Part shown: in pieces, positions 6,851 through 26,848 of the stretch | Numbering within the stretch: the first letter of the stretch is position 1 | How the letters are laid out: each line of letters begins with the position of its first letter | From: Perkinsus olseni | Lineage: Eukaryota | Direction: 5' to 3' | Length of the DNA stretch: 42,979 nt | NCBI GenBank assembly: GCA_013115125.1 | Contig: JABANN010000283.1 | Span: 1-42,979 of the forward strand | The notes under the pieces: model-generated | The model's input: the letters and a program-made list of their open reading frames with translations, nothing else | What the model was told of the DNA's origin: nothing | Databases searched by the model: none | Position numbers and translations under genes: made by a program

Positions 6851-7319
6851 CGGCAGACCTCTTCAATGGGCTCATTCTTGTCAGTACGCGTAGAGTTACG
6901 TCACAAGGACAAAGGGGGTGCGTACGCTACACAATGTACGCACACGCTCTACGCGCAGCACATAAGATACTCACTTGCAGATGCCGAACGCACGCACAGG
7001 ATTCACTGCTTCAACTTGGACAATAATAGCAGGATACGCATAGTGGTCACTGTGGCTCCCACAAGGGCTGCGGTATATCCATTGGTGTGAAAGATGAACT
7101 CTTCCCTCCCAGCCCGGGAGATGTGTGCGAGCGGTGAGACGTCTTAGCACAGCCGCTAAGCGTAATCAATCCCCGCACACATACATCTCTCTGTGCAAAG
7201 CTGGTAGCCGCTTCGGCCACAGCTATCACACAGAGTGATGCCAATCCCACACTCCCGTGTTGGCCGACTTTCATCACTAGTATAACAATTACCTCCGTGC
7301 CATGTCGTTTTCTTCGCAC
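6851..7319 (-). pseudogene. Split 3' remnant of the 11-TM gene family (copy 0)
   Basis: KKTTWHGGNCYTS is encoded at about 7275-7319 and NEPIEEVC at about 6853-6876, with the family stop TGA read as CGA. About 390 bp of unrelated sequence separates them. Confidence 0.7.
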
Positions 7320-7470: not shown

Positions 7471-10014
7471 TCAGCAGACCTCCTCGATGGTCTCATACCC
7501 GGTAGTATAGCAGTTACCACCGTGCCATGTTGTGCTCTTATAACCTATCCACTTGAAGTCGAACGAGAAGGACATACCAGAATTAGAGTACTGAACGGCT
7601 ATGTAGTACGTCATCAATGAGACTTGCAATGCGGCAAAAGGCCAGGAGAAGTGATACCCAAGACGTAAACCGATCGATGTTACAGACTCGTTGAACCACC
7701 GCTTCATGGCGATAATGAGTATTATGAAAAGCGATGCTTCGGCCACGATTTCGATCAACAGCCTCCAGATCCCTTGCCAGAATTCTTCGTCTGTCATATC
7801 CCAGAAGGTGTCGTGAAGTTTGGGGTTGAAGGTACGTAGGACCAACGAGCAAATTAGATAATGCATGGGAGCGACGACTTCCACCACTTCTTTGCAGATG
7901 GCAACAGCCAATATAGAGAATGAACTGTTGAAGCTTCCATCTCTCGTGGATATCTGCTCGTTGTTCGCCTCAATACTCGATTCTGCAATTTTCTCCGGTG
8001 AACCGCTCCTACGATAAGGGAACGGGAACTCATCAGAGGAACTACTCACGGGCCTTTCGGGAATTGAATTAGTTCCGAGCAGGCTTGTGAAAGAAGACAA
8101 AGTGCTCATGCTAGAGCGTCGTCTGGCTATCCCTCCACCGGAACGAGAGAAATCGTCTCTGATGCGCTGCTTTCCGCCTGGATTGGTCGCAGTTATAGTG
8201 AGTTCAGCATTCACAGCAGGGCTTTCGTGAGATAAGGGCATGGCCGGCGAAAAGTCGGAACGCTCATCTCTGGCCAGCTCAGCCGCGGCGAGGGCGCTGC
8301 AGCGGCCGCTTCGACTTTTATGGTGCTCATCCGCATCGAATTGACCGAGACAGTCCATCGAATTTGCCAGTCTTGCATTGAGAGCCGCTCCGTTGATACC
8401 GCACGTGAGCGCATTGCTCCGTTTATCCGATCCATTAAGATGAAAATCCGAATCCAGCACAGGCAACTGCGCATTTTCAGGCTCCTTCCTTGCAGTTTCA
8501 TAATTCTCACTCACTTCTGTCATATTTCGAGAGCCGTTCGCGGGATGCTCAGCGTTAGTGTTAGACCTTGGCGCAGGCTCCGCACAACCTCGCTGATCTC
8601 GGTTGCAGCCAACCTCCCCCTGCGGATTGGATTTTCGACTATCAGGAGGGGCTGGGCTAATACCGTTTCGCGAAGGGACCGGATATGCCGCTTTGTAAAT
8701 ACAGTAGATGTAGTAGAGGTTCTCCAGAAGGTCTAGTGAAATCAGGAGCATGGCCAACCAGACTTCGGTGACGCCAGTAATGACGGAGGATATGAAGAAC
8801 TCATAGGCGTACATCGCGAGGAGCACTATCATAGGGTAGCAGTCGACACAATACAATCTCGCGTAGTGCTTAGCGAATTTCTCGAAAACGACCCGTAAAA
8901 CGAAGAAAGCCAAGCAGATCCAGAACCTTAAGAATCGATTCTGCTTGAGGGCGAGAAAGTAGAGCACTGGGTAAGCTAAACCGAAAACGCTGATAGCGCT
9001 GCACAAAGTGATTGGCACCATCGCGAATCTGCTCCTGGGACCAAGTGAAGGCCCATCTTGAGGAAGGTTATAGTAGATCATACCGACTACTGCTGAGGCC
9101 GGCACACCACTACACACGGGCATCCACGGCAGGGGCCAATAAGGAGTAAAGGCCGGAACGACACCGAGCCAGAAAAGCTGCCAGACCCCAGCCATGAGAC
9201 CAATCTTGAAGTACTTCGACACTCGGCGGTCGCCCCAGACATCGGAGAGTAGACTGTTAGTCCACGGGGCGAGCATGAATGAACACTGAGAGGAGATGAT
9301 GAATAGGACTGGCAGCCACTGCCATGCAGACACACCAATAGGGCCGGGGATAGGTACGACGAACACGATCACCGAGGCAAGCGGGGCGATGCAGACAATG
9401 ATAGCCGTCCTACAGAGCTGGATGCGAGGCACCTGGAGTGAAAAGCGGAAAGCAGGATGAGACTCCCCCGTCGAGATTAAGAAGCCGCCACGCCCACCAT
9501 GTCTCTTCGCAGGAATTCAGTGAGCTCCTATGAGAACTCGGGGAAGCCTATGAGGCGTTCGCGGGCCATAATCAGGGCTGCAGTCATTTTCTCCCAGTTG
9601 TTCCTGGAGTCACTCGCTGCGAAAGGGCAAGGGCTCTCCTGAGAACGATTGGGACTCACTCGGTAACTGAGCGGCACCGGCGTATTTTTGAGTACATCTA
9701 TGAGTTGTTAATAGCATAGATTCGAAAAAGGCACGAATCTCGTGCCACGACAGCTAAGTCGCTCACATTCATCCCTGTCGCAGTGAGAAACTGAAGATTG
9801 AATAGCGAGGACCTCTTCACGGATGACGCTGACCTCCGACCGGCTGCAAGACCGGAGCGAGTTCGTGACGCTACCCTGAGGCGAATGCTTGACGGTGGCA
9901 TGAGAGATGCAGAACGCAGAACAACGTGCCGCCAATCGGCGAGGCCTACCCTTACTGAGTCGCAGATAAGCCAGTGCCCTGCTCGGCGGAGATGGCTGGA
10001 TCGTTGAAGTTCAT
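7471..10014 (-). CDS. 11-TM membrane protein family, copy 1 (nonsense codon in exon 3; possibly N-truncated or a pseudogene)
   Basis: Main exon 9432-7471 (653 codons); intron 9433-9497. Upstream exons are homologous to the other copies (MNFNDPAISAEQG... from 10014; ...NWEKMTAALIMARERLIGFPEFS*ELTEFLRRDM). There is an in-frame TAG at 9528-9530. Confidence 0.8.
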
Positions 10015-10178
10015 ACGAGACGTCAAGAGCAACCCTAATGGAGCGAAAGTATTCATTTCAGCAGCGGAAAACGCATTCACTCGAAATTCACTTCGTCTCC
10101 AAAAGTTTTCGCGTTAAGGAGTGACAAAAACTCACAAGTTGTTAAAGAAGCTCCGCAACACCCTTTATACCTCAGAGA

Positions 10179-10560
10179 TTGAGCCTCCGAGACACAACAG
10201 GCCACGTAATGAAGCAGCTGTACCCGGAAGAGTCTATTCGTCGACATCGAGCCACCTTCAAGGCCAGCAATGCTTCACCGGGCGTTCAAGTGCACCCACA
10301 CCTGGCCGTTTCGTTGTGGAGGGCAAAGTTCTGAACCGCCTCAAGAAAGGAGAAGCCCCGCGGTTGCCCGACTGCGACACCACCATGGCCGAAGCTGGAA
10401 AACCCCAGAAGCTAGAGCTCGACATCGGTACCGGCAGAGTTGGCAGGCAACAATCCGAACAGCCCCAGGCCACCCGCCCTGTGCGAGGCAGCCCAGGGCG
10501 GTTTGCGCCAGAGGAAAAGCTGAAGTCTCCAGAGGCTCTGGGAGAGCTGCTCTTCATGGC
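10179..10560 (+). repeat. Inter-gene repeat, copy A (decayed coding-like relic)
   Basis: Aligns by eye with 13468-13780. The shared translation is PTPGRFVVEGKVLNR(L/I)KKGEAPRL, with shared DNA ccagaagctagagctcgac and gctgctcttcatggcc. Confidence 0.85.
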
Positions 10561-10759
10561 CAAAGTGAGACACGTTTTTCAAAGTTTTACTCCCAGAAGG
10601 AACGCAACTACATATAGTTATTGACAAGCCATGCGGAATGAGGATATTCGCTGTGACTTAATGATTCATGGGAAACGGCAAGACTCAATCTATCTCGACC
10701 AGCAATGCTACAGGGCCTGTATTCCGGGACTACTAGTCTCGGCTAGCCTGGTTGGAGCC

Positions 10760-13424
10760 TCAGCAGACCTCGTCGACAATCTCACTCCCACGAGTATAAC
10801 AGTTACCGCCGTGCCATGTCACATTCTTTTCACCAACCCATATAAAGTCGCCCGAGAAAGTCATGCCAGCGTTCGAGTACTGGAGGAGAATATAATACGT
10901 CATCAGAGAAACTTGCACGGTGAGAAATGGCCAGAGGAAATGATATCCGAGGCGTAGAGCGATGAATACGATCGATTCGTCGAACCGTCGCTTCATGGCG
11001 ATAATAAATAGTATGAAAAGGCATGCTTCGGCCACGATGTCGATCAAGAGCCTGCGGATGCTGCGTGCAAACTCCTTGTCTGTCATATCCCAGAAGGTGT
11101 CGTGCAGTTTGGGGTTGAAGGTACGCAGGACACGCGAGGATATTAGGAAATGCAGGGGAGCGAGGATCTCAACCATTTCTTCGCAAATGGCAATAGCCAT
11201 CACAGAAAGTGAGCGCTTGGAGCATTTCTCGGCTAACTTTCCTTTGCTTCTGCCAATTATTACTTCTGTGATAATCTCAAGCACGCTACTTCTACGCGAG
11301 GGCAGCGAGCCTTCATGGGATGCGCGTCGAACTATAGTCTGAGCGCCATCAATGGGGAAGGGGCCCTTGACCAGACCGTTTCCATCAGAAGCCAGCGATA
11401 CCCCATCTAAGGTACCTTCTACTAGTCCCTGACGAGCATAGCCAATCGTATGTTTCAGCAGGCTAGTGAATGAAGAGAGCGTGCTCATACTAGAGCCTCG
11501 TCTATCTATCCCCCTGCGCGCGTTAAAATAAGAGAGCCTGGCCGCGATCTCTCGCTTCCGGCCAGCTGTAGCACTGCCGTGGTCCGAATTCACAGTAGCG
11601 CTCCCGTCTATCGATGGCATAATCCGCAAGAAGTCGGAACACTGGGCATCACTGGACGACTCGAGAGTATTGAGATGGCTGCCTCCCCTACCGTATAGCA
11701 CATCCGGTTCGATTCGACCAGGGCATTGCAGCGCATCAAGATGTGTTTTCGCGGAGTTCGCCCCTCTGTCAGCAGTGGCTCCACCACTTCGTTTATCAGG
11801 GGCACTCAGCCGAAAACCGGTTTCCAAGGCAGGGGACTGCGGCAATGGCGGCTCTATCTCCCCATTCGGATGACTGTCGCTCGTCTGCGAGTCATTGGCG
11901 GGATGCTCGTGATCAGTAGGCGGCAATGGTGCCGGGGCTGTTTCATCGGGCTGCCCTTCATTATCGCCTTCCACTCTTTGCGAATCGGGCTTCGGATCTT
12001 GGAGTGAAACTCGGCTTACACCGCCGAGGGATGAGCTCGGGTCTCCAGCTCGATAGATACAGTAGATGTGAAAGAAGTTTTCCGCGAGGTCCAAGGCGAT
12101 TAAGAGCATGGCCAACCAGACCTCGGGGACATCACTAATGGCGGAGGATATGAAGAACTCATAGGCGTACATCCCGAAGAGGACTATCATAGGGTAGCAG
12201 TCAATGCAAAACATCCTTGCATAGTGCTTAGCTACGTTCTCAAAAACTTTGCGGAACACGTAAAAGACGAGAAAAAAGCATATCTTCAATAATCCATTGA
12301 GCTCAAGGGAAAGGTAATATAGGACGGGGTAGCTTATGCCGAAAACGGCAACACCACCGCCAAGTGTGACGAACACCATCGCTATCTTCTTTCTGCACGC
12401 AGCTGAGCGCTTGTCACGAGGCACGTTATAGTAGGTCATACCGAACGCAGGTGACATTGTCGCACCAGCGATGATGGGCATCCATGGTAGAGGCCAATAA
12501 GGGGTGAATGCCGGGGCGACACCGAGGCAGATGACCTGCCAGGCACCCGCCATGAGACCGACCTTGAAGTAAATCGCTATACGCTCGTCTCCCCAAACGT
12601 CGGAAAGGAAGCTGTTACTCCACGGAGCGAGCATAAAGGTACACTGAAAGGCGATGATGAATAGTACTGGCAGCCACTGCCATACAGACACATGGATTGG
12701 GCCCGGGATCGGTATAGCGAACACGATGAGCGAGGCGAGTGGGCCAAAGCAGACAATCAGTGCTGCCCGATAGAGCTCTAGGTGAGGTACCTCGCGTAGA
12801 AAGATGCTATCCACTTGGTAGCTAGAGGTCAGCCTCACTCACCGTGTCTCTCTGAAGACATTCACTGAGCTCCGCCGAAAGCTCGGGGGAGTCTGCGAGG
12901 CACATGAGTGCGGCATCCAGGACTCCAGTCAGTTTCTCCCAGCCGGCTTTGGTAGATGAGCGGAGATACTTCAGTGTAATAGAAAAGTGACGCCTCTCCT
13001 GAGAAACGCTGGGACTCAGTTCGTCATCGAGTCGTATGGGCATCACCATTGAATCATATGAAAAGCAAATCGATCCTCATTGTGCCTGCTGCGAATTCAT
13101 AGACATCACTACACGCGGTCTATGATGCGGACTTGAACGAACTCGAAGGGTTGAAGTACTCACACTCTTCTGTGATGCCGCGGGGGTCTTCGCAATAACT
13201 GGCAACGGGGCTCGCACGGGAGCCGCTGCCCCTGTGCCACCGGCAGCACCGCCATTAGGCGGTAAGTCTGCCTTGAGGCGATAACTCGTCGGTGAAGCGG
13301 AACGGCTGAGACGAAGAGGATAAGCATGCGGCGGAGCGGTGAGGTGGGAAAATGTTACTCCGTACGGAGTCAGGCATAGGCCACCACCTCGCTCGGTAGC
13401 AACTGCCTGTTTATTGGAGTCCAT
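10760..13424 (-). CDS. 11-TM membrane protein family, copy 2 (apparently intact)
   Basis: Exons 13424-13366, 13305-13164, 12998-12843 and 12790-10760. Introns of 60, 165 and 52 nt are all GT-AG and the spliced frame is open. The protein ends WHGGNCYTRGSEIVDEVC. Confidence 0.85.
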
Positions 13425-13467
13425 ATAGCACGTCCAAAAATAGGGCTGAGATTGGACTCCGATCATC

Positions 13468-13780
13468 GGAGATTGAGCTCCCGAGACACCTTCAAGGCCA
13501 GGAATGCTCTGCCCACACCTGGCCGCTTCGTTGTGGAGGGCAAAGTTCTGAACCGCATCAAGAAAGGAGAAGCTCCGAGACTACTTGACTGGCAGTCGGC
13601 GACTGTGACACCGCCATGGCCGGAGCTGGCAAACGCCAGAAGCTAGAGCTCGACGTCGGATTCGGCAGAGTCGGCTGACAACAACCCGACAGCCCTAGAC
13701 CACCTGCCCAGTGTGAGGCAGGTGTTCGGTTTGAGCCTCATCCCCCTTTCTCTGTGGAGGCGCTGCTCTTCATGGCCCTA
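13468..13780 (+). repeat. Inter-gene repeat, copy B
   Basis: Homologous to 10179-10560 with indels; it marks the edge of the copy 2/copy 3 duplication unit. Confidence 0.85.
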
Positions 13781-14429
13781 TTTTACGAAGTTGGCGAAAT
13801 GTCGTCCCTAGGTAACATGAGAGCTCTGGAGTACGCTATGCGCATCCAGGCATTTCGTGCCAACAGGCGACAATGAGCCTTCCAGCGTTTAGGTGACGAC
13901 GAAAGGTGGTTCTTGTGCGTATCGGTCGCACATGCTAAGCTCAGTGCATTGCGGGTACGGTTGCGGGCAAGGGCGAAATTCGCGCCGCGCGAGTGGCATA
14001 CAGTAGGGGCGTGAATCGCCTTCCCCTCGGACCCACGCGTCTGGAGCGGGAGGATCGAGATTATTCTTCATACGTAGAAGCCATCTAATTCGAATCAAAT
14101 GAGCGGACGCCTGCATGTGAAATTATCTAGTGACCTGTCGCTCATCACCGTGGTAAGCGATACGATGTGATAATATCACATCGTCTAGCCTTGGGAATGG
14201 AATTATGAGTCTTCGGGCTTTGCCGTAGCGATTACACACGTTTTCAATGTTTCACCCCCTGAGGCAACCTGACGCAACCACACATAAATACTGACAAGCC
14301 ATGCGGGACGAGAATATTCACGGTGACTGGTTGATTCATGGGAAACAATAAGTGTCCATCTATCTCGACCAGCAATGCTACAGGGCCTGTATTCCGGGAC
14401 TACTAGTCTCGGCTAGCCTGGTTGGAGTC

Positions 14430-17047
14430 TCAGCAGACCTCGTCGACAATCTCACTCCCACTAGTATAACAGTTACCGCCGTGCCATGTCACATTCTTTT
14501 CACCAACCCACATAAAGTCGCCCGAGAAAATCATGCCAGCGTTTGAGTACTGGAGGAGAATATAATATGACATCATAGAAAATTGCACGGTGAGAAATGG
14601 CCAGAGGAAATGATATCCGAGGCGTAGAGCAATGAATACGATCGATTCGTCGAACCGTCGCTTCATGGCGATAATAAATAGTATGAGAAGGCATGCTTCG
14701 GCCACGATGTCGATCAAGAGCCTGCGGATGCTGCGTGCAAACTCTTCGTCTGTCATATTCCAGAAGGTGTCATGAAGCTTGGGGTTGAAGGTACGCAGGA
14801 CACACGAGCATATCAGGAAATGCAGGGGAGCGAGGATCTCAACCATTTCTTCGCAAATGGCAATGGTCATCACAGCAAGAGAACGCTCGGAAAGTTTCTC
14901 GGCTGACTTTCCTTTGCTTCGGCCAATTATTACTTCTGTGATAATCTTAAGCACGCTACTTCTACGCGAGGGCAGCGAGCCTCTATGGGACGTGCGTCGA
15001 ACTATAGTCTGAGCACCATCAATAGGGAAGGGGCCCTCGACCAGACCGTTTCCACCAGGGGACGGCGATCCTTTACCCAAGTTAGCTCTCACTGGCTTTT
15101 GAAGAGCAGAGCCTTTCATATGTTTCAGCATGCTAGTGAATGAGGGCAGGGTGCTCATACTAGAGCCTCGTCTAGCTATCCCCCATCGCTCGGTAGTATT
15201 AGATACCTTGGCGACGACCTCTCGCTTCCGGCCGACAGAAGCAATGCCGTGGTCCGAACTCTCAGCGACCCTTCCGTTCATCGACGGCATAATTGGTGAA
15301 AATGCGGAACACTGGGCGCCACTGGACGAGATGCAATTTTTGGGATGGCCGCTTCCCGTGCCGCACACGCCATCCGACTCGACTTGACCAGGGTACTGCA
15401 CCGCATGAAGGGACGCTTTCATGGAGGCTTCTCCGTCTTCTCCCCGCGAGGACCCGCCACGTTTACCAGAGGCACTCAGCTGGGAACCGAGTTCTGAGAC
15501 GGCCGACTGCGGCAGTGGCGGCTCCATCTCAGCATTGTGGTAACTGGCGCTCTTCTGCGGAATTTCTCGCGAATAGTCCGCGGGATGCTCGAGATCAGAA
15601 GGCGATAATAGATTCGGCTGATCTTCATCGTTTCCGTCTCTCTGTAGATCGTGCTCCGTGTCTCCGAGTGCAACTCGACTCGTATTGCCAAGGGACAAGC
15701 TCGGGTCTCCACTGGAGACTCTCCAGCTCGATAGATGCAGTAGATGTGAAAGAAGTTTTCCGCGAGGTCCAAGGCGATTAAGAGCAAGGCCAACCAGACC
15801 TCGGGGACATCACTAATGGCGGAGGATATGAAGAACTCATAGGCGTACATCCCGAAGAGGACTATCATAGGGTAGCAGTCAATGCAAAACATCCTTGCAT
15901 AGTGCTTAGCAACATTCTCAAAAACTTTGCGGAACACGTAAAAGCCGAGAAAAAAGCATATCTTCAATAATCCATTGAGCTCAAGGGAAATATGGTAAAG
16001 GATAGGGTAGCTTATGCCGAAAACGGCTTCTCCACCGCCAAGTGTGACGAACACCATCGCTATCTTCTTTCTGCACGCAGCCGAGCGCTTATCACGGGGC
16101 ACGTTATAGTAGATCATACCGAACACAGCCGAGAGAGTCGCACCAGCGATCAACGGCATCCATGGTAGAGGCCAATAAGGGGTGAAGGCCGGGACGACAC
16201 CGAGCCAGAATGCCTGCCAGGCACCCGCCATGAGACCGATCTTGAAGTACTTCGCCACACGCTCGTCACCCCAGACGTCCGAAAGGAAGCTGTTACTCCA
16301 AGGAGCGAGCATAAAGGTGCTTTGGAAGAAAATGATGAATAGTACTGGCAGCCACTGCCATACAGACACATGGATTGGGCCCGGGATCGGTATAGCGAAC
16401 ACGATGAGCGAGGCGAGTGGGCCAAAGCAGACAATCAGTGCTGCCCGATAGAGCTCTAGGTGAGGTACCTCGCGTAGAAAGATGCTATCCACTTGGTAGC
16501 CAGAGGTCAACCTCACTCACCGTGTCTCTCTGAAGACATTCACTGAGCTCCGCCGAAAGCTCGGGGAAGTCTGCGAGGCACATGAGTGCGGCATCTAGGA
16601 CTCCAGTCAGTTTCTCCCAGCCGGCTTTAAAAGATGAGCGGAGAGATTCCAGAGCCATAAGAAAGTATCGTCTCTCCTGAGAAACGCTGGGACTCAGTTC
16701 GTCATCGAATCATATGGGCATCACCGCTTTATCGTGGGGAAAGCACTACAACGGTTTAGAACGGACTGCAGTTAACTCGGAGGGCCGAAGTACTCACACT
16801 CTTCCGTGATGCCGCAGAGGACTCTGCAATGAGTGGTAATGGGGCTGGTGCGGGAGCCGCTGACCTTGGCCTCCTCGGAACACCGCCACTGGGCGGTGAA
16901 TCCGCCTTAAGGCGATGGCTCGTCGATGAAGCGGAACGACTGAAGAAGAGGGTCAGGCGAGCAATGGAGTGGTGAGGCCCATTCGTACGGAGTCAGGCAC
17001 AGGCCTCCACCTCCCTCGGAAAGACTCGCCCGATTGTTGGAGTCCAT
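14430..17047 (-). pseudogene. 11-TM membrane protein family, copy 3 (frameshifted)
   Basis: Near-identical to copy 2 in the TM regions, but split into ORFs 15476-16516 and 14430-15698 by a 14-bp insertion at 15712-15725. ATG is at 17047. Confidence 0.8.
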
Positions 17048-18074
17048 ATAGCACGTCAGAAGGAAGGCTGGCAAAGGGATGGCAGCGGAGGGCGTCGCGT
17101 AAACGCCAGGGAACTGCACGTAAACGGATCCCCCAGACTGTCCCGTTAACGACTCACTCCTCCTACGTCATTGGTAGAAGCTTGTAATGAGTCATGGTGA
17201 TACATCCACAATGACAGCATAGGTAAGATGTTGGAGGGAAACAGAGGAACACTCTTTCGAGAGGGAGCGAGTTGATACCTTGAGTATTAGCAGAATAAAG
17301 CCATTGGTCGACGCCGTCGACTCGACGGCCGGTCAGCAGGTCGTGAAGCAACCTGAGTTGGCCGACTCAGCGGCGTCCTCCGGTCTCAGGAGATTAAGCT
17401 GTGCAATCGCTGCCCGCGTCTGTGCTGCGCTCACCACAGAGACACCCTGTCACTCGGAGTGATCGCTCCGTTGACCCCTTTCAGAGGCAGCTACCAATAG
17501 TTGCTTGGAGGAATCATGAGCACAACATGAGGAGGCGAGTAGTCTCCAGATTGAGGATGAAGGCAACGGTTTACAGCGCAATAATCAGGGACGGGAAGAC
17601 ACCGTCGAGTGGTGACATTCGTGCTGCGAAAAGCTTGTCTACAAGATATGAGACAAGAACTTGACAACAGCTCAATGCAGATCGTGGGTAAATCCCAATC
17701 CGCAATCAGCTTACGTTGAGTTCGAGTACGACAGCTTGTCTTCGCGATCCAACCTCAAGGTGGACAAGGTATTGGAGACTCGAAAACCTCGGGTAATTTG
17801 ATGGCCTGCCTTGGCTCTGACTATCACACCGGGAAGCTCCACGATCGAAATTAAGGCACGGGCTTAGGGCCGGTGATCACACAAGATTACTGAAGTCTGA
17901 AGGAGGAGACCCACTACAGCAACGCGACAACACGTGTTTAGCGCCCTACAAAACGCAGGACATCATAGAGGCTCGTTTTTCGATGAAAAACAACATTTCT
18001 CATGATATCTGAACAAGCAATGGTACAAAAACTGTATCCGCGGACTGCCGATCCAGGTTAATCTGTTTGCTCTC

Positions 18075-20680
18075 TCAGCAGACGTCTTCAATGGTCTCAT
18101 TCCCGGTAGTGTAACAGTTACCACCGTGCCATGTTGTATTCTTCTCACCAATCCATTTAAAGTCGAACGAAAAGGTCATACCGGCATTGGAATACTGAAG
18201 ATCTATATAGTGCGTCATGAGGCAGACCTGCATAGCCAAGAATGGCCAGAAAAACTGATAGCCAAGCCGCAGAGCGATGAAAATGACCGACTCGTTCAGC
18301 CACCGCTTGATGACAACAATCAGTAGGACGAAAAGACACGTTTCGGCAGCGATGTCTATCAAAAGCCTCCGGATGCCACGCACAAACTCTTCGTCTGTCA
18401 TGTCCCAGAATGTATCATGAAGCTTGGGGTTGAAAGTACGTAGGACCAACGAGCATATCAGATATTGTATGGGTGCCAGGACTTCAACGACCTCTTTGCA
18501 GATAGCAACGGTCATGATGGAAAGAGCACGCTTGGAACCGCCGTCTCTCATCCCGGCCATGGTCTCCATGTTCACACCCGTGACCAGGTCCGCGAGGATC
18601 TCGAATACACTACCCCTACGAGAAGAGCGCCAGCTGCCATCAGAACAGCGTCCTGCGCTTGTACGCCGATCATCGATCACAAAGTTGTCCCTCAGTACAC
18701 TATCTTCACAGAGATTCAGCGCGCTCCGATCCGTGTCTCCTCTCAGGGGCCCTCGACTGCCACAGCCCACTGAGCTTGCGAGCGGGCTAGGAGAAGGAGA
18801 TGGTGGGCATTCACTAGAGTCTCTCCTGAGTGTCCCATCATTTCGGCCAGTAGCGAAGGGCTCGGCTGTGGTGTGCTGCTCCCGACCAGGACTGTGCGGA
18901 ATGCTAGCGTGTTCTAGAGCCCCAGTACCACCCTCGTTGGTCAGCGACGTATCTCCGACAGAATCGGAGGGCCTGCCCACGACACTTGCACCGGTACCGG
19001 CAATATCGGGAATGCTGTTCTGTTGACCGAGGGTTACATTGGATTCGGGTGGGCCAGAGCCGAGAATCATATTTGACAGCGCCTCTGCATTCGAGGACTG
19101 TGTTTCGTTGTTCGATGTAGCCAGAGGCGATTCGGCCACCGCTGCTTCAACCTCGGCATCATCATCATTTTCTGTCGTTTTCGCAGCTCGTCGCGAGCCG
19201 ACGCCGGGGTGCGCAGCGCCATTCGGTAGCCCCTCATTGCCATTTCTCTGTGGATCGTTTTTTCGAATCTCTGGTGGAGCCATGTTGAACACGTTGCCCG
19301 GTGGGCGTCGCACTTGATAACTACAATAGATGTAGTAAAGGTTCTCCATAAGGTCGAGAGAAATCAGGAGAATCGCTAGCCAGACTTCCGTTACGGCGCT
19401 AATGACGGAGGATATGAAGAACTCATAGGCGTACATCGCGAAGAGGACTATCATAGGGTAGCAGTCGATACAATACAATCTCGCGTAGTGCTTAGCAACC
19501 TTCTCGAAAACTATTCGGAATACGTAGAAAGAGAGGCAGATCCAGAATCTCAAGAATCCATTGAGCTTTAGGGCGAAATAGTATAACATGGGGTAGCTTA
19601 TACCGAAGACAGCGACACAACTTCCGATAGAGACCAATACCATGGCGATTTTCTTTCTGGACCCCAGTGACCGCTTGCCCTCCGGCAAGTTATAGTAGAT
19701 CATACCGACTATAGCCAACAGTGTTACACAACCAATCACAGGCATCCACGGTAGAGGGAAATAAGAAGTAAAGGCCGGGACGACACCGAGCCAGAGGAGC
19801 TGCCAGGTACCCGCCAGGAGACCGATCTTGAAGTACTTCGATACACGCTCGTCTCCCCAAACGTCGGAAAGGAAACTGTTACTCCACGGGGCGAACATAA
19901 AAGAACACTGGAAACCGAGGAGGAATAATACTGGCAACCACTGCCATGCCGACACATCAGTAGGACCCGAGATAGGTACGATGAAAGCAACCAGCGAAAT
20001 AAGCGGAGCGAAGCAGACGATGAGCGCAGTCTGATAGAGTTGAGGGTGAGGTACCTAACACACGAATCGGAAACATGTGGTGAGATTCTTCACTCAGGAA
20101 TTGGAGAGTGAGACACAGTCCCTCGCCAGCAACGCTGTGCTGAATTTAAATTGTTTGGATATGCCAGAAGAAGCGAAGGTTTCTCTTATACAACGCTGTA
20201 TCATCGAAGCTCACCGTGTTCCTCTGAAGAGCTTCAGTGAGATCCAATGAAAACTCTGGGAAATCTGTCAGGCGGTCGCGGGCAGCTTCCAGAGCTTCGA
20301 CGACTCTCTCCCAGCCTGCCATCATAGCTGCGAGGATGACTTCTGCCCCTGTGAGCAAGCGGCGTCTCCCCTGAGGAGCATACTCGATCAGCGAAGTGCT
20401 CCAGATCATCGAAGATGTACATGCAGGGCGGTACCCAGAGCGGACGCCTGTCATCAGAGCTCACCCTCTTTGGTGAACTCGGAAGAGGCTCTTGTACGAG
20501 TGGCAGCAAGTCTCGCGCTGGAGATTCCGAAGTTCGACCGGTCGCGACGCTAACACGAGCCAGCGGAGGTTCTCTGATGGAGAGAACAGATTCGACTGGA
20601 AGCGGTACAGCATTCTCGTACGCAGTGCGGGTTTGGCCAGCATCTTGTCCGGTAGCAATGGCCTCATCGCAGGAATTCAT
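18075..20680 (-). CDS. 11-TM membrane protein family, copy 4 (apparently intact)
   Basis: Starts MNSCDEAIATGQD at 20680 with the same 4-exon layout; the last intron is 20055-20214. The main exon runs VPHPQLYQTALIVC... to WHGGNCYTTGNETIEDVC. Confidence 0.85.
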
Positions 20681-21101
20681 ATAGTATCGCAAGAGCAAGA
20701 CTCAAAGCAAAGTATCTCGAAATAAAAGGACAGCAGCCCGCTGTGCCAGCTGCATTTCGCACATTCTCAACAGGAAGTTGAGCTTCACAGGACCGAACGA
20801 GACGCCTCTCTGCCATAACGTCCTGCTTCTCATGCTACCCATGACAAACGCCGCAAAAAGTCTCAGTCCTCCATCAATTCGCCAGGTTCCATCTCGTCCT
20901 ATTTGAATGACTGCACGGCTCCATGGAAGTGGTGTCCACTGTAACACAACAGTGCATGGCCCTTGATGAGCTCCGCGATACGGAGACAACCAACATGGCT
21001 CGTCAGGTTATCAGAGATATCATGTCTTCATCTTTTCCTACGAGCAATGCTACGGGATCTGTAGCCTCGGACTGCTAGCCCAAGCTAGTCTGGCTGACAG
21101 C

Positions 21102-23643
21102 TCAGCAGACCTCCTCGATAGTCTCATTCCCGGCAGTGTAACAGTTACCACCGTGCCATGTTGTGTTCTTCTCACCAATCCACTTCACGTCAAGCGAGAA
21201 GGTCATACCGGCATTAGAATACTGGAGAACGATATAGTACGTCATCATAGACAGTTGCACAGTGAAAAATGGCCAAAGGAAGTGATGACCAAGCCGCAGA
21301 GCGATGGATATGACCGACTCGCTCAACCTTCGCTTAATGACAAAAATGAGTAGCATGAAAAGACACGCTTCGGCCACGATATCTATCACCAGCCTCCGGA
21401 TGCCACGCAGAAATTCTTCGTCTGCCATATCCCAGAATGTATCATGAAGCTTGGGGTTCGAAGACCGCAGGACAATAAAGCAGATTAGGTATTGTACGGG
21501 TGCCAGGACCTCAACCAGCTCTTTGCAGATAGCAATGGTCATGATTGAGAGAGCACGCTGAGAGATCTCGTCTCCGTCGCCCATCTCCCTGGTATTCCTA
21601 CCGGTAACTAGATCTGTGATGACCTCAAGTACACTGCTCCTACGAGATGACATGGAGCTGCCCTCGCGGCTGAGACCAGGCGATGTTCGTTTGCCCTCAA
21701 TAACGGAAGGATTCTTCGCCAGGGTCGAGAAGGAAGCCAGCGTGCTCATACTAGACCCTCGTCTCGCTATCCTCGTGGGCGCGCCAGAAACGGCCTCTTT
21801 CGCTTTAATTCGTTGCTGCTTGCCGGAATTACTCGGAGTGATGCGATGATCGGGGTTCTCATCTGCGCTTGCGTTCATCGATGGCATAACCCGCGAAAAG
21901 TTAGAACCTCTACCTTTGAATCTTCCGACCTTCGTGGAGATTTTGGAATGACTGTTCAGCTCTCTGTTGAGCGCATCGGAATCTGTTCGACGATTGCAAC
22001 GCCATGAAGTGAACAGAGCACCCTTGGGAGCTCTCCCTTCCCCATCCCTAAGGTTTCCAGTCACCCGTTCACCAGAGCCGCGCAGCCAAGACTTCAATTC
22101 CGAGACGGGAGGGTGTGGTGTTACTTCGACCTTTCTGGAGCAGTGATCATAGCCACTCGTCTCATCTGCTTGTGACAAGTCACCGGCGGGATTCGGAGCG
22201 CGAGTTGGAGGAAGTGGCGCCAGATCGGCACTACTTCGCCGAGCTACTTCTTCGACAACGTCTCTCTGTCGGTCGAGGCTTCTGCTCTGGGATGGGTTCG
22301 AACTCATAGAGTGATGCAACAGGATGGGGTTCCTAGCTTGGTGAATACAATAGATGTAGTAGAGGTTCTCCAGAAGGTCCAGGGAAATCAGGAGCATGGC
22401 CAACCAAACTTCGGTGACGGCGCTGATGACGGAGGATACAAAGAACTCATAGGCGTACATCGCGAAGAGCACTATCATAGGGTAGCAGTCGATAGAGTGT
22501 AGCCTTGCGTAGTGCTTAGACACTCTCTCGGAAACTTTTCGGAACACGAAGAAAAAGATGAAAATCAATACTTTCAAGAATCCGTGGAGCTCGAGTGATA
22601 AGTAGTACAGAAAGGGGTAGCCTAAGGCGAAAACAGTTACACCACTGCCGACAGTCATGAACAGCATCGCCAGCTTTCTTCTAGACCTCAATGAGCGTTT
22701 GTCACGTGGCACGTTATAGTAGATCATAACGATCGTAGCTAAAAGTGTTACACCACCGATCATGGGCATCCACGGTAGAGGAAAATAAGGAGTAAAGGCC
22801 GGGACGACACCGAGGCAGATGACCTGCCAGGCACCCGCCATGAGACCGATCTTGAAATACTTCGATACACGGTTGTCGCCCCAAACGTCGGAAAGGAAGC
22901 TGTTACTCCACGGAGCGAGCAGAAACGCACACTGAAAGGCGATGAGGAATAGTACTGGCAGCCACTGCCATACGGGGACATCGATAGGGCCGGAGATAGG
23001 AATGGTGAATACGGCCAGCGCAATGAGCGGAGCGAAGCAGACGATTATTGCTGCCCAGTAGAGTTGAAGGTGAGGTACCTGAGGCACAGAGCAAGGCTCT
23101 TCGTCCCTGGAAAGGATGCTCAGTACACTTACCGTGTCTTTCTGCAGGAATTCGATGAGTTCTGGAGAGAGCTCTGGGAAGTCTGTGAGGAGCTCATGTA
23201 CTGCATCCAGGGCGCCAGCCAGTTTCGCCCAGCAGGCTTTGGTAGATGAGCGAAGAATTTCCAGTGTTATACAATAGCGGGCTCTCTCCTGAGTAGCAAC
23301 GGAACTTAGTTTGCCACTGAACGGTCTGATGAATATTCTAATACGCGGTATAAAACGCGGAATTCAGCGAGCTCGGAGGGTCGAAGTACTCACGCTTTCC
23401 CGTGATGCCGCAGAGGACTCTGCAATGAGTGGTAATGGGGCTGTCACGGTAGCCACTGACCTTGTCCTCCTCGGAACACCGCCACTGGGCGGTGAATCTG
23501 CCTTGAGGCGATGACTCGTCGATGAAGCGGAACGACTGGAGAAGAGGGTCAGGCGAGCAATCGAGTGGTGAGGCCCATTCGTACGGAGTCAGGCACAGGC
23601 CTCCACCTCCCTCGGCAAGACTCGCCCGATTGTTGGAGTCCAT
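21102..23643 (-). CDS. 11-TM membrane protein family, copy 5 (apparently intact)
   Basis: Starts MDSNNRASLAEGGGG at 23643; intron 1 is 23536-23584 (49 nt) and the last intron is 23079-23132 (54 nt). The main exon ends WHGGNCYTAGNETIEEVC. Confidence 0.85.
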
Positions 23644-24595: not shown

Positions 24596-26848
24596 TCAAT
24601 CATCCTTCGCCATGTCCAGAATGGAGTGGAACTCGTCATGAGCATTAGGTCTGAGGGCCTTCACTCTACCTTTGATCTCATCGAGGAAGTTCCAGGCCAA
24701 GACCACCACAATTAGATCAGATTTCTCATTCTGCAGGGCGGCCTTCGGTTCATAGACCATCAGACCCTTGATGCCGGGGACTTGAAGGCCGGCCTTCCTC
24801 GGGTTATCATCAACAACATAAGCCAATTCATTACTGACACCGGCAAAGTTGAGGAGGACAACTGCCTTAGCCGCTGCACCATAAGCGACAACCTTACGGC
24901 CCTCCATCCACCACTCACGAAGGCGCCGGAGGAAGCTCGTCGCCCGAGTTTTGGCAAAATCAGCGAAGTGCTCGTAGGCACCAATGCTGTAGATGCCTCT
25001 ACCCTCCTCTTCAGTGAGTTCACTCTTGACCGAGTCCTCGACGAGTTCCATCCGGACACCTTTCCTCAGGCAGAAGATATAGGAAGTACCATGGATGCTG
25101 GGCTTGGTGACACGTACCACAGTAAAGCCGCACCTCTCAGACAAGACGACCATGGACTTGGTAGAGAAGAAGGACTGATGCTCATGATAAATCGTGTCGA
25201 ACTCCCCTTTGGCAACTATGTCGGCCTGACTGGTCTGTATGTAGAGCCTCGACTCATCGCTCATCACCTCCGAGCAGGCTTGCAGGAACTCCGCTGGCTT
25301 TGCAACGTGAGCGAAAACATTCTGAGCGGTCAAAGCATCGACGACACCAATCTGTCGAGCAACTTGAGGGGACCAATAATCACAGATAGCGCGATGGCCT
25401 TTCTTGATGGTGACTTCACTCATCAGATTCACAGCAGGATCGACACCAACAGTCTTCCATCCGCGCTGTTTGAAGTAGTCCAACAGAGTGCCGTCATTAC
25501 ACCCGACATCAAGGACAATACCATCCGACTTCCCAACATCCTTCGTTACCATATCAGCGAACCAGGCCGAATATTTGGCCAAAGTTGTCGAAGTACCCGA
25601 CACGTACACATAGTCGCGGAAGAGGATATCCGGGTTGACAACATGAGCCAATTGCAGATGCCAGCAATGCTCACAAATCTTCACTTGAAGAGGGAACGAC
25701 TTGACATCCTCAGAATTAACGGGATGGAAGCTGTTAGCGGGCGGTTGAGTACCCAAGTCAAGGACCAGTTTGAGATCAGCTTGACCGCAACAGCGGCACT
25801 CCTTGACTTTAGTACACTCGAATGCCTTGGCATCCCTAATCTCGGTGTATCGGTCGGCGAGCCGAGGTCCAGCCAGAATGATGTCATCCCAATTGTCTCT
25901 GATCTCCTTGCAGATACTCTCAGCCGTGCCAATAAACTTGAAGGAGGGTATGGCTTTGAGGAACTTATCAGTCGAGACGCAAAAGTCGTAGGTCGTCTTG
26001 GTGAACTTCTCGTTACCCTGAGTACCGGGGACTAGCTGTTCGCGTACCAAAGGGACATTGAAGAAGTCCGACACCCTCTTGCCGAATTCATAGACCGTAT
26101 GCTGAACGCTCGCGAGATTGTACAAACCCGGCTCGGGCTGATGCTCGATTATAGCGCCAACAGCCCGGCATAGGTCCTCAAGGGCAAGAACTGGTCGATG
26201 CACATGTTCCACAAAGATACCAACTTTCTTCCGAGTGAGGGCCGAGTAAGCCATAGCATTGACCATAACATCACTACGCAGGTTCAATGACCATCCACAT
26301 ACTGTACCCATGCGCACACCATATATCTTATCCTTGGAACCTCTATGAGAGATATAATACTGAGAAACAAGATCCATAGACTTCTTGCATATATCATAAT
26401 AATTGTGGCCTCTGTACTCGCTGTAATCCTCGTCGACCATACCAGTAGTATCACCATAGACGCTGGAGCTGCTCGCGTAAATTACGACTTGCCCTTCTGG
26501 ACGCTTAGCGCTCAGGAAGCGCGACAGATTATAGACACTATTAGAGATAGCACCAAAAGCAGTAGTGCAGGAACGAACAGAAGGGTTGCCAGCCATCAAG
26601 ATAGCGACATCCTTGTCCGCACACTGTTTCTCGTAGTCACAATCATCTCGATTCGTGTACTCAATCTCCTCAATACCAGCTCTCTTTAGCGCGAGCAAAA
26701 TCTGAGAGTTATCATGATCCACAACAGTGACATGACACCCTTGATGATGCAGGTAAAGAGCGAGACGGCTCCCAATGAAGCCGCCACCACCATAGATAAT
26801 AACACGGAGATTTTTGGGAGAACCGGGGTAAGAGAGAGCGGCTAGCAT
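24596..26848 (-). CDS. NAD-dependent sugar epimerase/dehydratase fused to SAM-dependent NDP-hexose C-methyltransferase, copy A (750 aa)
   Basis: Extended-SDR motifs: GGGGFIG, YASSSSVYG, YDICK (YxxxK). C-methyltransferase motifs: Zn-site CRCC...CEHC, LGTQPPANSF, DVGCNDGTLL (SAM), NVFAHV, FDTIYHEH, IHGTS, AYGAAAKA, VDDNPRKAG, as in TcaB9/TylC3/EryBIII-type enzymes. No coding introns. Confidence 0.9.
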   Translation of the reverse strand: MLAALSYPGSPKNLRVIIYGGGGFIGSRLALYLHHQGCHVTVVDHDNSQILLALKRAGIEEIEYTNRDDCDYEKQCADKDVAILMAGNPSVRSCTTAFGAISNSVYNLSRFLSAKRPEGQVVIYASSSSVYGDTTGMVDEDYSEYRGHNYYDICKKSMDLVSQYYISHRGSKDKIYGVRMGTVCGWSLNLRSDVMVNAMAYSALTRKKVGIFVEHVHRPVLALEDLCRAVGAIIEHQPEPGLYNLASVQHTVYEFGKRVSDFFNVPLVREQLVPGTQGNEKFTKTTYDFCVSTDKFLKAIPSFKFIGTAESICKEIRDNWDDIILAGPRLADRYTEIRDAKAFECTKVKECRCCGQADLKLVLDLGTQPPANSFHPVNSEDVKSFPLQVKICEHCWHLQLAHVVNPDILFRDYVYVSGTSTTLAKYSAWFADMVTKDVGKSDGIVLDVGCNDGTLLDYFKQRGWKTVGVDPAVNLMSEVTIKKGHRAICDYWSPQVARQIGVVDALTAQNVFAHVAKPAEFLQACSEVMSDESRLYIQTSQADIVAKGEFDTIYHEHQSFFSTKSMVVLSERCGFTVVRVTKPSIHGTSYIFCLRKGVRMELVEDSVKSELTEEEGRGIYSIGAYEHFADFAKTRATSFLRRLREWWMEGRKVVAYGAAAKAVVLLNFAGVSNELAYVVDDNPRKAGLQVPGIKGLMVYEPKAALQNEKSDLIVVVLAWNFLDEIKGRVKALRPNAHDEFHSILDMAKDD

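Follow-up and report, generated by a model that had tools for sequence, protein, structure and literature searches.

The question raised by this locus is what kind of membrane protein is encoded by a tandem gene array on contig JABANN010000283.1 of the Perkinsus olseni assembly GCA_013115125.1, of which positions 1 to 42,979 of the forward strand (hereafter, the window) were analysed. The array occupies positions 7471-23643 on the minus strand and comprises five paralogous genes with a spacing of 3.0-3.7 kb, together with a short relic of a sixth. The original prediction, made from the letters of the window, described a lineage-expanded, uncharacterised transporter, channel or receptor with about 11 transmembrane helices. 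The observation is real and was read accurately, and its interpretation was reasonable, being too cautious on one point and too broad on another. We conclude that the array consists of five paralogues of an undescribed family of eukaryotic membrane proteins, three of which are apparently intact and two damaged. In addition, we tentatively propose, with a confidence that stays somewhat short of even, that these proteins are cation-gated ion channels or lipid scramblases built like the members of the TMEM16 / OSCA-TMEM63 / TMC superfamily.

The existence of the array follows from the list of open reading frames (ORFs) and their translations, which contains five long and clearly paralogous minus-strand frames at 7471-9516, 10760-12838, 14430-16516, 18075-20054 and 21102-23363 (copies 1 to 5), the third of which is made up of two overlapping frames. 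Self-BLASTN showed that the 5' and 3' cores of the copies, which encode the N- and C-terminal membrane blocks, align at 71-83% identity, and that the middle (loop) regions can be aligned solely between copies 2 and 3 (83% over 2,902 nucleotides (nt)). The similarity among the five copies is far beyond chance, and the five-copy tandem array was thus correctly recognised, with the relic of a sixth copy to be added. The best database match of the array proteins is the hypothetical protein FOZ61_005071 of P. olseni (P0005, 771 amino acids (aa)); the four open copies of the window align at 51-57% identity to this protein or to copy 4, and copy 3 aligns in two frames. No published description of the family was found in a literature search at the level of abstracts, and the proteins are public as 'hypothetical'.

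Each gene encodes about 770 aa. The protein begins with some 110 soluble residues, among them a conserved helix that terminates in ..DFPEFS.., and continues with eight membrane helices, a loop, three further helices and a tail. The Kyte-Doolittle peaks agree in this respect with the DSSP assignments of two AlphaFold2 (AF2) models, which bears out the count of about 11 membrane helices. The first of these models, built with 11 sequences, was poor (predicted local distance difference test (pLDDT) 39.2, predicted template modelling score (pTM) 0.33) and was kept out of the fold searches. The second, a model of copy 4 built with 75 sequences, is a confidently predicted helix bundle with a mean pLDDT of 72.8, a pTM of 0.69 and 355 residues at or above 90, and its low-confidence residues are essentially all located in the loop. 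Helix 11 is kinked at residue 601, and the C-terminal tail is modelled as a short β-hairpin.

Residue conservation was counted in 39 sequences (7 from Perkinsus and 32 distant ones), using the numbering of the copy 4 last exon. The acidic and amide positions in or beside the helices are E184 (33/39, with D in 3 more), D197 (36/39), E211 (31/39), D234 and E237 (36/39 each), N238 (37/39), E521 (36/39), E524 (33/39, with D in 3 more), D567 (29/39) and E571 (35/39); further conserved positions are P102 (38/39), R128 (35/39), P528 (35/39), G625 (38/39) and W634 (36/39). When 75 sequences are considered, D234, E237, E521 and G625 are found in at least 90% of them. All five window copies carry E211, D234-x2-E237-N238, E521-x2-E524, D567-x3-E571, G625 and W634, and the motifs YAYEFF, LDLxEN, E(V/M/L)VE and (D/E)IxAE, to which attention had been drawn from the window copies, show no or almost no variation among 11 Perkinsus sequences. 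The conservation of acidic residues in or beside the helices that had been noticed in the array therefore extends, near-invariantly, across the 39 sequences, distant relatives included. As judged from these alignments, the acidic residues are a signature of the family.

The positions of these residues in the predicted bundle are of special relevance. E211 is located in helix 7, D234, E237 and N238 in helix 8, E521 and E524 in helix 9, and D567 and E571 in helix 10, whereas D197 and E184 sit where helices 7 and 6, respectively, meet the cytosol. On the consecutive helices 8, 9 and 10 the acidic and amide residues are thus spaced i/i+3/i+4, i/i+3 and i/i+4. The AF2 model places the predicted limits of these helices at 224-249, 506-541 and 554-586, respectively, so that E237 would be 12 residues above the cytosolic end of helix 8, E521 would be 15 above the start of helix 9, E524 would be 17 below the top of helix 9, and D567 and E571 would be 13-17 below the top of helix 10. 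Overall, the residues of helices 8-10 would be 12-18 residues away from the cytosolic helix ends or, equivalently, 13-17 below the outer ends, and would lie at about one depth with E211, this depth being residue-count arithmetic and not a measured distance. Eight to ten carboxylates and amides inside a membrane need counter-ions, and a site for Ca2+ or another cation is therefore the simplest reading. We propose that the buried belt of acidic and amide residues on four consecutive helices (7-10) would bind a cation, most likely Ca2+, and that this site would gate or form a permeation path, as it does in TMEM16 channels and scramblases.

In the TMEM16-type superfamily, paired N, D or E residues on three consecutive helices bind Ca2+ and thereby open a groove that spans the membrane. 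The Ca2+ ligands of nhTMEM16 are given as N448 and E452 in transmembrane segment (TMS) 6, D503 and E506 in TMS7, and E535 and D539 in TMS8 (PMC5868767). The likeness of the family described here to the TMEM16/anoctamin proteins (TCDB 1.A.17.1) concerns the large helical membrane domain, the cytosolic linker preceding the 'E..E' helix, and the pairing of N, D or E residues at i/i+3 or i/i+4 on three consecutive helices, here helices 8-10. It should be noted that the idea of a TMEM16 Ca2+ site was written down before any fold search. In the VIA-align fold search, which covered 48,161 chains and of which the top 50 rows were considered, six rows name natural membrane proteins; all six belong to one superfamily, and each match spans the whole model. 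They are mTMEM16A (5nl2_A; VIA-align values 7.5, 5.2, 215), TMEM16K (5oc9_A; 6.6, 6.1, 230), TMEM63A (8ehw_A; 6.5, 5.7, 215), TMC-1 (7usw_A; 6.3, 6.6, 226), afTMEM16 (6dz7_B; 5.7, 6.3, 222) and OSCA3.1 (8u53_A; 5.3, 5.8, 223). The OSCA/TMEM63 proteins (CSC, Pfam RSN1_7TM) have 11 helices and a long cytosolic insertion, features with apparent counterparts in the Perkinsus proteins. However, the OSCA insertion is a folded domain located between transmembrane helices TM2 and TM3, whereas the one studied here is disordered and located between helices 8 and 9. The acidic site, moreover, is described as poorly conserved in CSC and TMC (PMC5868767), and it is strongly conserved here. Together, the fold search and the acidic pattern favour a channel or scramblase over a receptor.

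Several observations weigh against this proposal. TMEM16 and TMC proteins have 10 helices and both ends in the cytosol, whereas the family studied here has 11 helices and a tail that is predicted to be outside. In addition, helices 9 and 10, of 36 and 33 residues, are long when compared with the TMS7-8 pair of TMEM16, which is short. At the level of sequence, neither Pfam nor the Protein Data Bank (PDB) yielded a match to TMEM16, and no sequence match links the family to OSCA/TMEM63 or TMC. Thus, four window proteins matched no Pfam family at E≤1, Anoctamin, RSN1_7TM and TMC included, and these three were likewise not found for 24 relatives at E≤0.001, for 7 proteins at E≤5, or, among the best 25 of 40 families, for 75 members at E≤10. 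PMC5868767 describes seven families of the Anoctamin superfamily, which are all tied together by the Pfam domains Anoctamin, TMC or PHM7, and none of these is present among the Pfam families listed for the proteins studied here. Profile searches of the PDB gave nothing better than E 0.025 (a designed GPCR modulator peptide), and Foldseek gave 0 matches at E≤0.001 among 350,542 PDB chains, the best having an E of 3.5 and template modelling (TM) scores not exceeding 0.28. Regarding the VIA-align matches, only about half of the core aligns, with a root-mean-square deviation of 5-6.6 Å, and the six matches are mutually related, so that they count as roughly one observation. Of the structural checks that accompanied the original prediction, AlphaFold thus returned a confident helix bundle and Foldseek no counterpart in the PDB, and the view that the family is uncharacterised holds, with no characterised family matched in Pfam, in PDB sequences or by Foldseek. 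A VIA re-alignment was also made of the 69 chains reported by Foldseek, a set that does not contain TMEM16. Among the rejected candidates, archaerhodopsin (E 1.1) and the designed GPCR modulator (E 0.025) in the PDB sequence searches were treated as noise, and the sub-threshold Pfam matches to DAC, Nucleos_tra2_N, MscS_TM, Gaa1 and other families, each of which occurred in a single one of 75 members, were disregarded.

The conserved acidic belt serves equally well as evidence for a transporter or exchanger of cations (Ca2+, Mg2+, metal or H+) that has a fold of its own and uses the acidic residues as the substrate site of an alternating-access carrier. This view would also fit the lack of a sequence link to any channel family and the failure of Foldseek to find a known fold. 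However, many secondary carriers are built from inverted repeats, whereas hhalign between the helix blocks revealed no internal repeat (probabilities ≤2%), and no carrier fold is present in the top 50 VIA-align rows. We therefore regard a carrier as unlikely, while still a contender to be taken seriously.

How widely the family is distributed was addressed by sequence searches of two kinds. A word-indexed search retrieved 9 proteins at E≤0.001, seven of them Perkinsus-named and one being the window's own; the Perkinsus-named matches come from P. olseni (three other assemblies), P. marinus and P. chesapeaki. Further word-indexed searches added no new taxa, the matches being Perkinsus proteins or, for one query, Platysulcus paralogues. 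A hidden Markov model (HMM) search with an 11-sequence profile against 1.84 billion representatives reached further, with 82 matches at E≤0.001, 33 at E≤1e-10 and 9 at E≤1e-30. The full-length matches from outside Perkinsus fall in two blocks, at about profile positions 98-255 and 508-655, which correspond to helices 3-8 and to helices 9-11 plus the tail. Cluster records were examined for 30 of the 82 relatives. The named ones among them are a short-loop paralogue family in P. chesapeaki (P0018), Polarella glacialis, Gymnodinium smaydae (two clusters), Platysulcus tardus and MMETSP transcripts, and the remainder are metagenome or run assemblies. Platysulcus tardus (EukProt; P0078, P0107-P0113, P0116-P0118) has eight sequences in one 90% cluster and three more clusters that are 39-43% identical; given these many paralogues, lineage-specific expansion is not peculiar to Perkinsus. 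According to these profile matches, the family is not restricted to Perkinsus and spans Perkinsozoa, dinoflagellates and at least one stramenopile.

The original prediction had also suggested a likeness of the GMxFSxDxxW end to oomycete or other stramenopile membrane protein families. The stramenopile part of this link is borne out by Platysulcus tardus in the HMM search, whereas oomycetes appeared only as look-alikes in the ESM Atlas. The nearest clusters there are oomycete proteins of 444-604 aa, with a likeness in language-model features of 0.92-0.93 and predicted-structure TM scores of 0.66-0.73 by row, both for P0005 and for the short-loop P0018. This likeness comes with neither an alignment nor an E-value, and the clusters are themselves unannotated. 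No oomycete name was found among the 30 examined cluster records or in the word-indexed sequence searches, and the relationship with oomycetes is a lead, not a demonstrated one. The ESM Atlas also pointed to a possible link with PF28488 (SPCC553_12c), which is represented in 14% of one cluster with a score of 0.89. Families of unknown function that are rich in protists, oomycetes and algae and have 8-10 hydrophobic peaks, with ANO-L lacking the last helix, are listed in Table 1 of PMC5868767; Perkinsozoa and dinoflagellates are absent from the phylum table of that article, and 'Perkinsus' and 'Alveolata' occur 0 times in its text.

The history of the array was inferred from a tree of the Perkinsus members and from substitution rates. 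One P. chesapeaki sequence is basal to all window copies, and copies 4, 1 and 3 pair with FOZ62_003566, FOZ63_033751 and FOZ63_033752, respectively (support 99-100%). Since copies pair with proteins of other assemblies, the expansion predates the divergence of the sampled P. olseni isolates. Nei-Gojobori estimates of the ratio of nonsynonymous to synonymous substitution rates (dN/dS) for the ten copy pairs gave medians of 0.23 for helices 1-8, 0.19 for helices 9-11 plus the tail and 0.51 for the loop, whose alignment is uncertain. For the cores, every one of the ten pairs has a value of 0.10-0.35, pairs involving copies 1 and 3 among them. Purifying selection thus acts on the cores, whereas the loop is relaxed and not positively selected, a contrast between core and loop of the kind that the original prediction had suggested looking for. 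Apart from the pair formed by copies 2 and 3, with a synonymous rate (dS) of 0.11-0.41, all pairs have dS values of 0.5-1.8, and hence most duplications are old and that of copies 2 and 3 is more recent. The proposed expansion within the lineage is thus supported both by the basal position of P. chesapeaki and by dS. In another P. olseni assembly, three proteins (P0010, P0012 and P0013) have the consecutive tags FOZ63_033750 to 033752, on contigs of about 10 kb, and the tree equates them with a gene of the copy-2/3 type, copy 1 and copy 3. As far as can be judged from these sequences, the array may thus vary from isolate to isolate in gene order and gene content.

The five long frames were correctly identified, but they do not represent entire genes. 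They lack a start codon and are therefore last exons, and three short exons are located upstream of them, giving a four-exon pattern in copies 2, 3, 4 and 5. Likewise, position 23643, at which the array had been taken to end, is the start codon of copy 5, upstream of its long ORF 21102-23363. Start codons of copies 2, 3 and 5 were located by tblastn with the N-termini of database models, at 13424, 17047 and 23643, respectively. The best supported gene model is that of copy 4 (18075-20680, minus strand), which starts with the ATG at 20680, stops at 18075 and encodes 767 aa; its introns, all GT..AG, are 20574-20621, 20371-20464 and 20055-20214. Contigs of one public run (X1), the RNA nature of which is only guessed ('RNA?') and whose depths were not used to rank the copies, show 0 differences from the window over 17972-20052 and contain four joints that skip 52, 160, 94 and 48 nt, all of them GT..AG introns on the minus strand. 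Three of the joints are in copy 4, and the fourth is the last intron of copy 3 (16469-16520). The X1 contigs leave most of copies 1, 2 and 5 uncovered and say nothing on their expression. Public models disagree on the reading of exons 1 and 2 (P0005 versus P0010), and the layout of P0010 is the one supported by the spliced contigs of copy 4, which can serve as the template four-exon model for annotating these genes.

Copy 2 (10760-13424, minus strand) has four exons, an ATG at 13424 and a stop at 10760, and appears intact; by analogy with copy 3, its candidate last intron is 12791-12842 (GT..AG, 52 nt). Copy 5 (21102-23643, minus strand; ATG 23643, stop 21102) is intact in FOZ61_005071, and 96 open spliced four-exon readings were found for it. 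Copy 3 (14430-17047, minus strand; ATG 17047), whose last intron is spanned by an X1 contig, contains relative to copy 2 a 14-nt palindromic insertion at 15712-15725, directly after ..IYCIYRAG, which shifts the frame. The insertion and its flank form a perfect 7+7 palindrome around a central base (CTGGAGA-G-TCTCCAG), which looks like the outcome of a template-switch or hairpin-type mutation and not like a homopolymer sequencing slip. In copy 1 (7471-9614, minus strand) the large exon, 7471-9516, is open, and a remnant of exon 3 is found at about 9495-9614; in this remnant an in-frame TAG (9528-9530) takes the place of the TTG of copy 4. A small deletion is also present in copy 1. Exons 1 and 2 of this copy were not found by tblastn with the N-termini of database models, and its database model (P0007) begins at an internal Met. 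The relic of the sixth copy sits just downstream of copy 1 (core 7279-7305, minus strand); it codes for ..TTWHGGNCYT.., and in a DNA alignment about 60 nt of it can be aligned with the five tails. Thus, copies 2, 4 and 5 look intact, and copies 1 and 3 are interrupted in this assembly.

These lesions raise the possibility, compatible with any of the functional readings, that the array is largely decaying, with one or two working copies and the rest being pseudogenes produced by unequal crossing-over, in which case the fivefold expansion would mean little for function. The frameshifting insertion in copy 3, the in-frame TAG and the missing first exons of copy 1, and the relic beside it are all in line with such a process, as are the branches joining copy 1 and P0013 (0.15 + 0.20), which are longer than those of the copy 3 and copy 4 pairs (<0.06 each). 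However, the low core dN/dS in all ten pairs implies that any decay is recent. Furthermore, P0010, the counterpart of copy 3 in another assembly, reads through without interruption, so that the lesion of copy 3 may be an allele or an assembly error, and an X1 contig bridges the last intron of this copy. We therefore consider it rather unlikely that most of the array is decaying.

Two further X1 matches concern the surroundings of the copies. A 334-nt contig matches 10214-10546, a stretch flanked by the copy 2 stop and the copy 1 large exon, with 0 differences, and positions 10248-10491 are 77% identical (self-BLASTN) to 13482-13721, just upstream of the copy 2 ATG. This stretch may belong to copy 2 as a 3' untranslated region (UTR), or to copy 1 as a 5' exon or UTR. 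The other contig, of 2,004 nt and with the highest depth seen (27.6), matches 7020-7266 with 21 differences and diverges from the window at both ends. This 247-nt piece, adjacent to the sixth-copy relic, is therefore also part of an expressed paralogous sequence located elsewhere.

The orientation of the protein in the membrane was deduced mainly from the distribution of positively charged residues. Averaged over 38-73 members, the successive loops of the first eight helices and the loop that follows them contain 0.63, 1.81, 0.07, 3.83, 0.41, 2.00, 0.41 and 11.1 Lys plus Arg (K+R), the last value being that of the long loop between helices 8 and 9. Two relatives (P0034 and P0095) contain a C2 domain in this loop, at residues 706-810, between the motifs at 664 and 885, and C2 domains are cytosolic. 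The K+R alternation, the C2 insertion and the RRxS islands described below therefore fit a cytosolic location of the N-terminus and the long loop, in agreement with what had been predicted for both. Concerning the C-terminal part, the extracellular location of the tail has some support and some ambiguity: three further spans follow the loop, and at least one glycosylation sequon is present in the tail of 28/61 members (directly before the conserved Trp in 23/61), which suggests from sequence features that the tail is outside; the K+R content of the last loops, however, is ambiguous (2.1 over 25 residues between helices 9 and 10, 1.3 over 7 between helices 10 and 11, and 1.7 in the tail), and the value between helices 9 and 10 fits the alternation poorly. 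The tail ends in ..TWHGGNCYT..(E/D)EVC, with two Cys, in each of the five copies, and it contains an NxT sequon in 4/5 of them, copy 1 being the one without, as had been read from the window. A disulfide in the tail, as put forward in the original prediction, would be a feature of Perkinsus at most, given that the terminal Cys is specific to this genus and is not conserved in other relatives. The short Cys-containing and often N-glycosylated tail would face the lumen or the outside.

The loop was originally described as hypervariable and disordered. Its disorder and its divergence are confirmed: residues 274-480 of copy 4 have pLDDT values <50, and the loops of the window copies, 259-282 aa in length, contain 19-21% Ser plus Thr and 18-21% hydrophobic residues (in copy 4, the disordered insertion comprises residues ~247-505 of the last exon, encoded on the minus strand at approximately 18840-19320). 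However, the loop is not uniformly variable. The columns R552, R553, S555 and S556 (RRGSSMSTLSSF) and S591, R592, R593 and E598 (SSRRSSVLE) are identical in at least 7/9 Perkinsus sequences, and each of the nine contains one to four R[RK]x[ST] sites inside the loop. The loop of copy 4 holds RRDS, RRTS and RRGS, where the other copies have the RRGSSMSTLSSF and SSRRSSVLE islands. Together with the K+R content and the C2 domain found at the same position in relatives, these sites suggest a loop that is cytosolic and regulatory in character. In most members of the family (61/73) the distance between N238 and E521 is 26-127 residues; distances of 210-299 are found only in ten Perkinsus proteins and the two C2-carrying isoforms (P0034 and P0095), and the long loop is therefore a Perkinsus insertion. 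If helices 8 and 9 indeed form part of a cation site, the disordered cytosolic loop of Perkinsus would be inserted between two site-forming helices, and its conserved RRxS islands would let basophilic kinases tune the gating.

Many distant members contain an additional N-terminal soluble region of 400-700 aa with a conserved 'SHAW..HPDP..FFDF.SISQRPF' block, which in P0021, P0026, P0031, P0032 and P0034 is extended as 'SHAW..HPDP..FFDF.SISQRPF..M.NMYFYAD'. Weak PDZ-like matches were obtained in 6/75 members (best E 0.0086), and a C2 insert is present in 2/75. The SHAW block resembles HET/TIR-type death-signalling domains, but this resemblance found no support in the searches made: hmmscan of 7 proteins at E≤5 gave no HET or TIR match, and a PDB search with P0031 gave 0 hits at E≤5. 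A bolder and doubtful extension of the channel or scramblase reading, for which we would claim little probability, is that the family constitutes an eighth branch of the TMEM16/OSCA/TMC superfamily across alveolates and stramenopiles, with a core that would permeabilise membranes at the end of a regulated pathway of stress response or cell death. Such a branch would have kept the TMEM16-type intramembrane Ca2+ site while having 11 helices and an outward tail, and would be invisible to sequence profiles. Its free-living members would carry large N-terminal signalling modules that include the SHAW block as well as PDZ-like and C2 inserts, and in Perkinsus this module would have been replaced by the phospho-regulated disordered loop and the gene amplified in tandem.

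The large N-terminal domains of distant relatives, with their weak PDZ-like matches and C2 domain, could also be taken as a sign of a receptor or sensor without transport activity, in which the tail or the outer loops bind a ligand, the phospho-sites of the loop relay the signal, and the expansion diversifies the outputs. The conserved two-Cys tail with sequons in 4/5 copies and the loop that differs between copies and carries RRxS sites would suit such a function. However, the strongest conservation is found inside the membrane and not in the tail or the loop, the long loop is missing in most relatives, and the outer loops are very short (medians of 4-12 residues), which makes a receptor improbable when compared with the channel or scramblase that we propose.

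Outside the array, a second tandem pair of genes is present on the minus strand at 24596-26848 and 28954-31233, with 89.8% identity to each other over 2.2 kb. Both genes consist of one ORF (750-759 aa) encoding an NAD-dependent epimerase/dehydratase fused to a sugar C-methyltransferase (Pfam Epimerase 5e-20, Methyltransf_13 6e-19, Methyltransf_23 5e-17 and Methyltransf_14 8.5e-26). This domain set is typical of bacterial deoxysugar pathways, and an old gene transfer is therefore possible for the fusion genes. The antisense ORFs of 417-439 aa over these genes look spurious. Further along, a 569-aa frame at 31553-33262 (minus strand) has a sub-threshold FCH/F-BAR match (E 1.1e-4, 22.8 bits, cut-off 27.8). 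That the array adjoins two copies of a sugar-modifying fusion gene, and that 8-13 helices and conserved acidic residues are found in many polytopic transferases, would accord with a membrane-embedded glycosyl-, acyl- or lipid-modifying transferase using Asp, Glu and Asn as catalytic or metal-binding residues, but this is very improbable, as no transferase was matched in Pfam, PDB sequences or the fold searches, the acidic residues are mid-helix on four helices and not in an outer loop, and gene neighbourhood weighs little in eukaryotes.

Perkinsus species are major parasites of clams and oysters, located at the base of the dinoflagellate/apicomplexan lineage, and, to our knowledge, almost nothing is known of their ion channels or lipid scramblases. 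If the link with the TMEM16-type fold fails, the family would still represent a confidently predicted membrane fold to which no solved structure corresponds, and would be worth a structure. If it is true, a medically important superfamily would be widened beyond the reach of sequence profiles, and a variant with 11 helices and an insertion between the site-forming helices would provide a test of how the Ca2+ site is coupled to gating. A family without a Pfam entry and with buried acidic residues that are near-invariant in the great majority of its members would, moreover, offer a new way of studying how alveolates and stramenopiles use Ca2+ in signalling or remodel their membranes.

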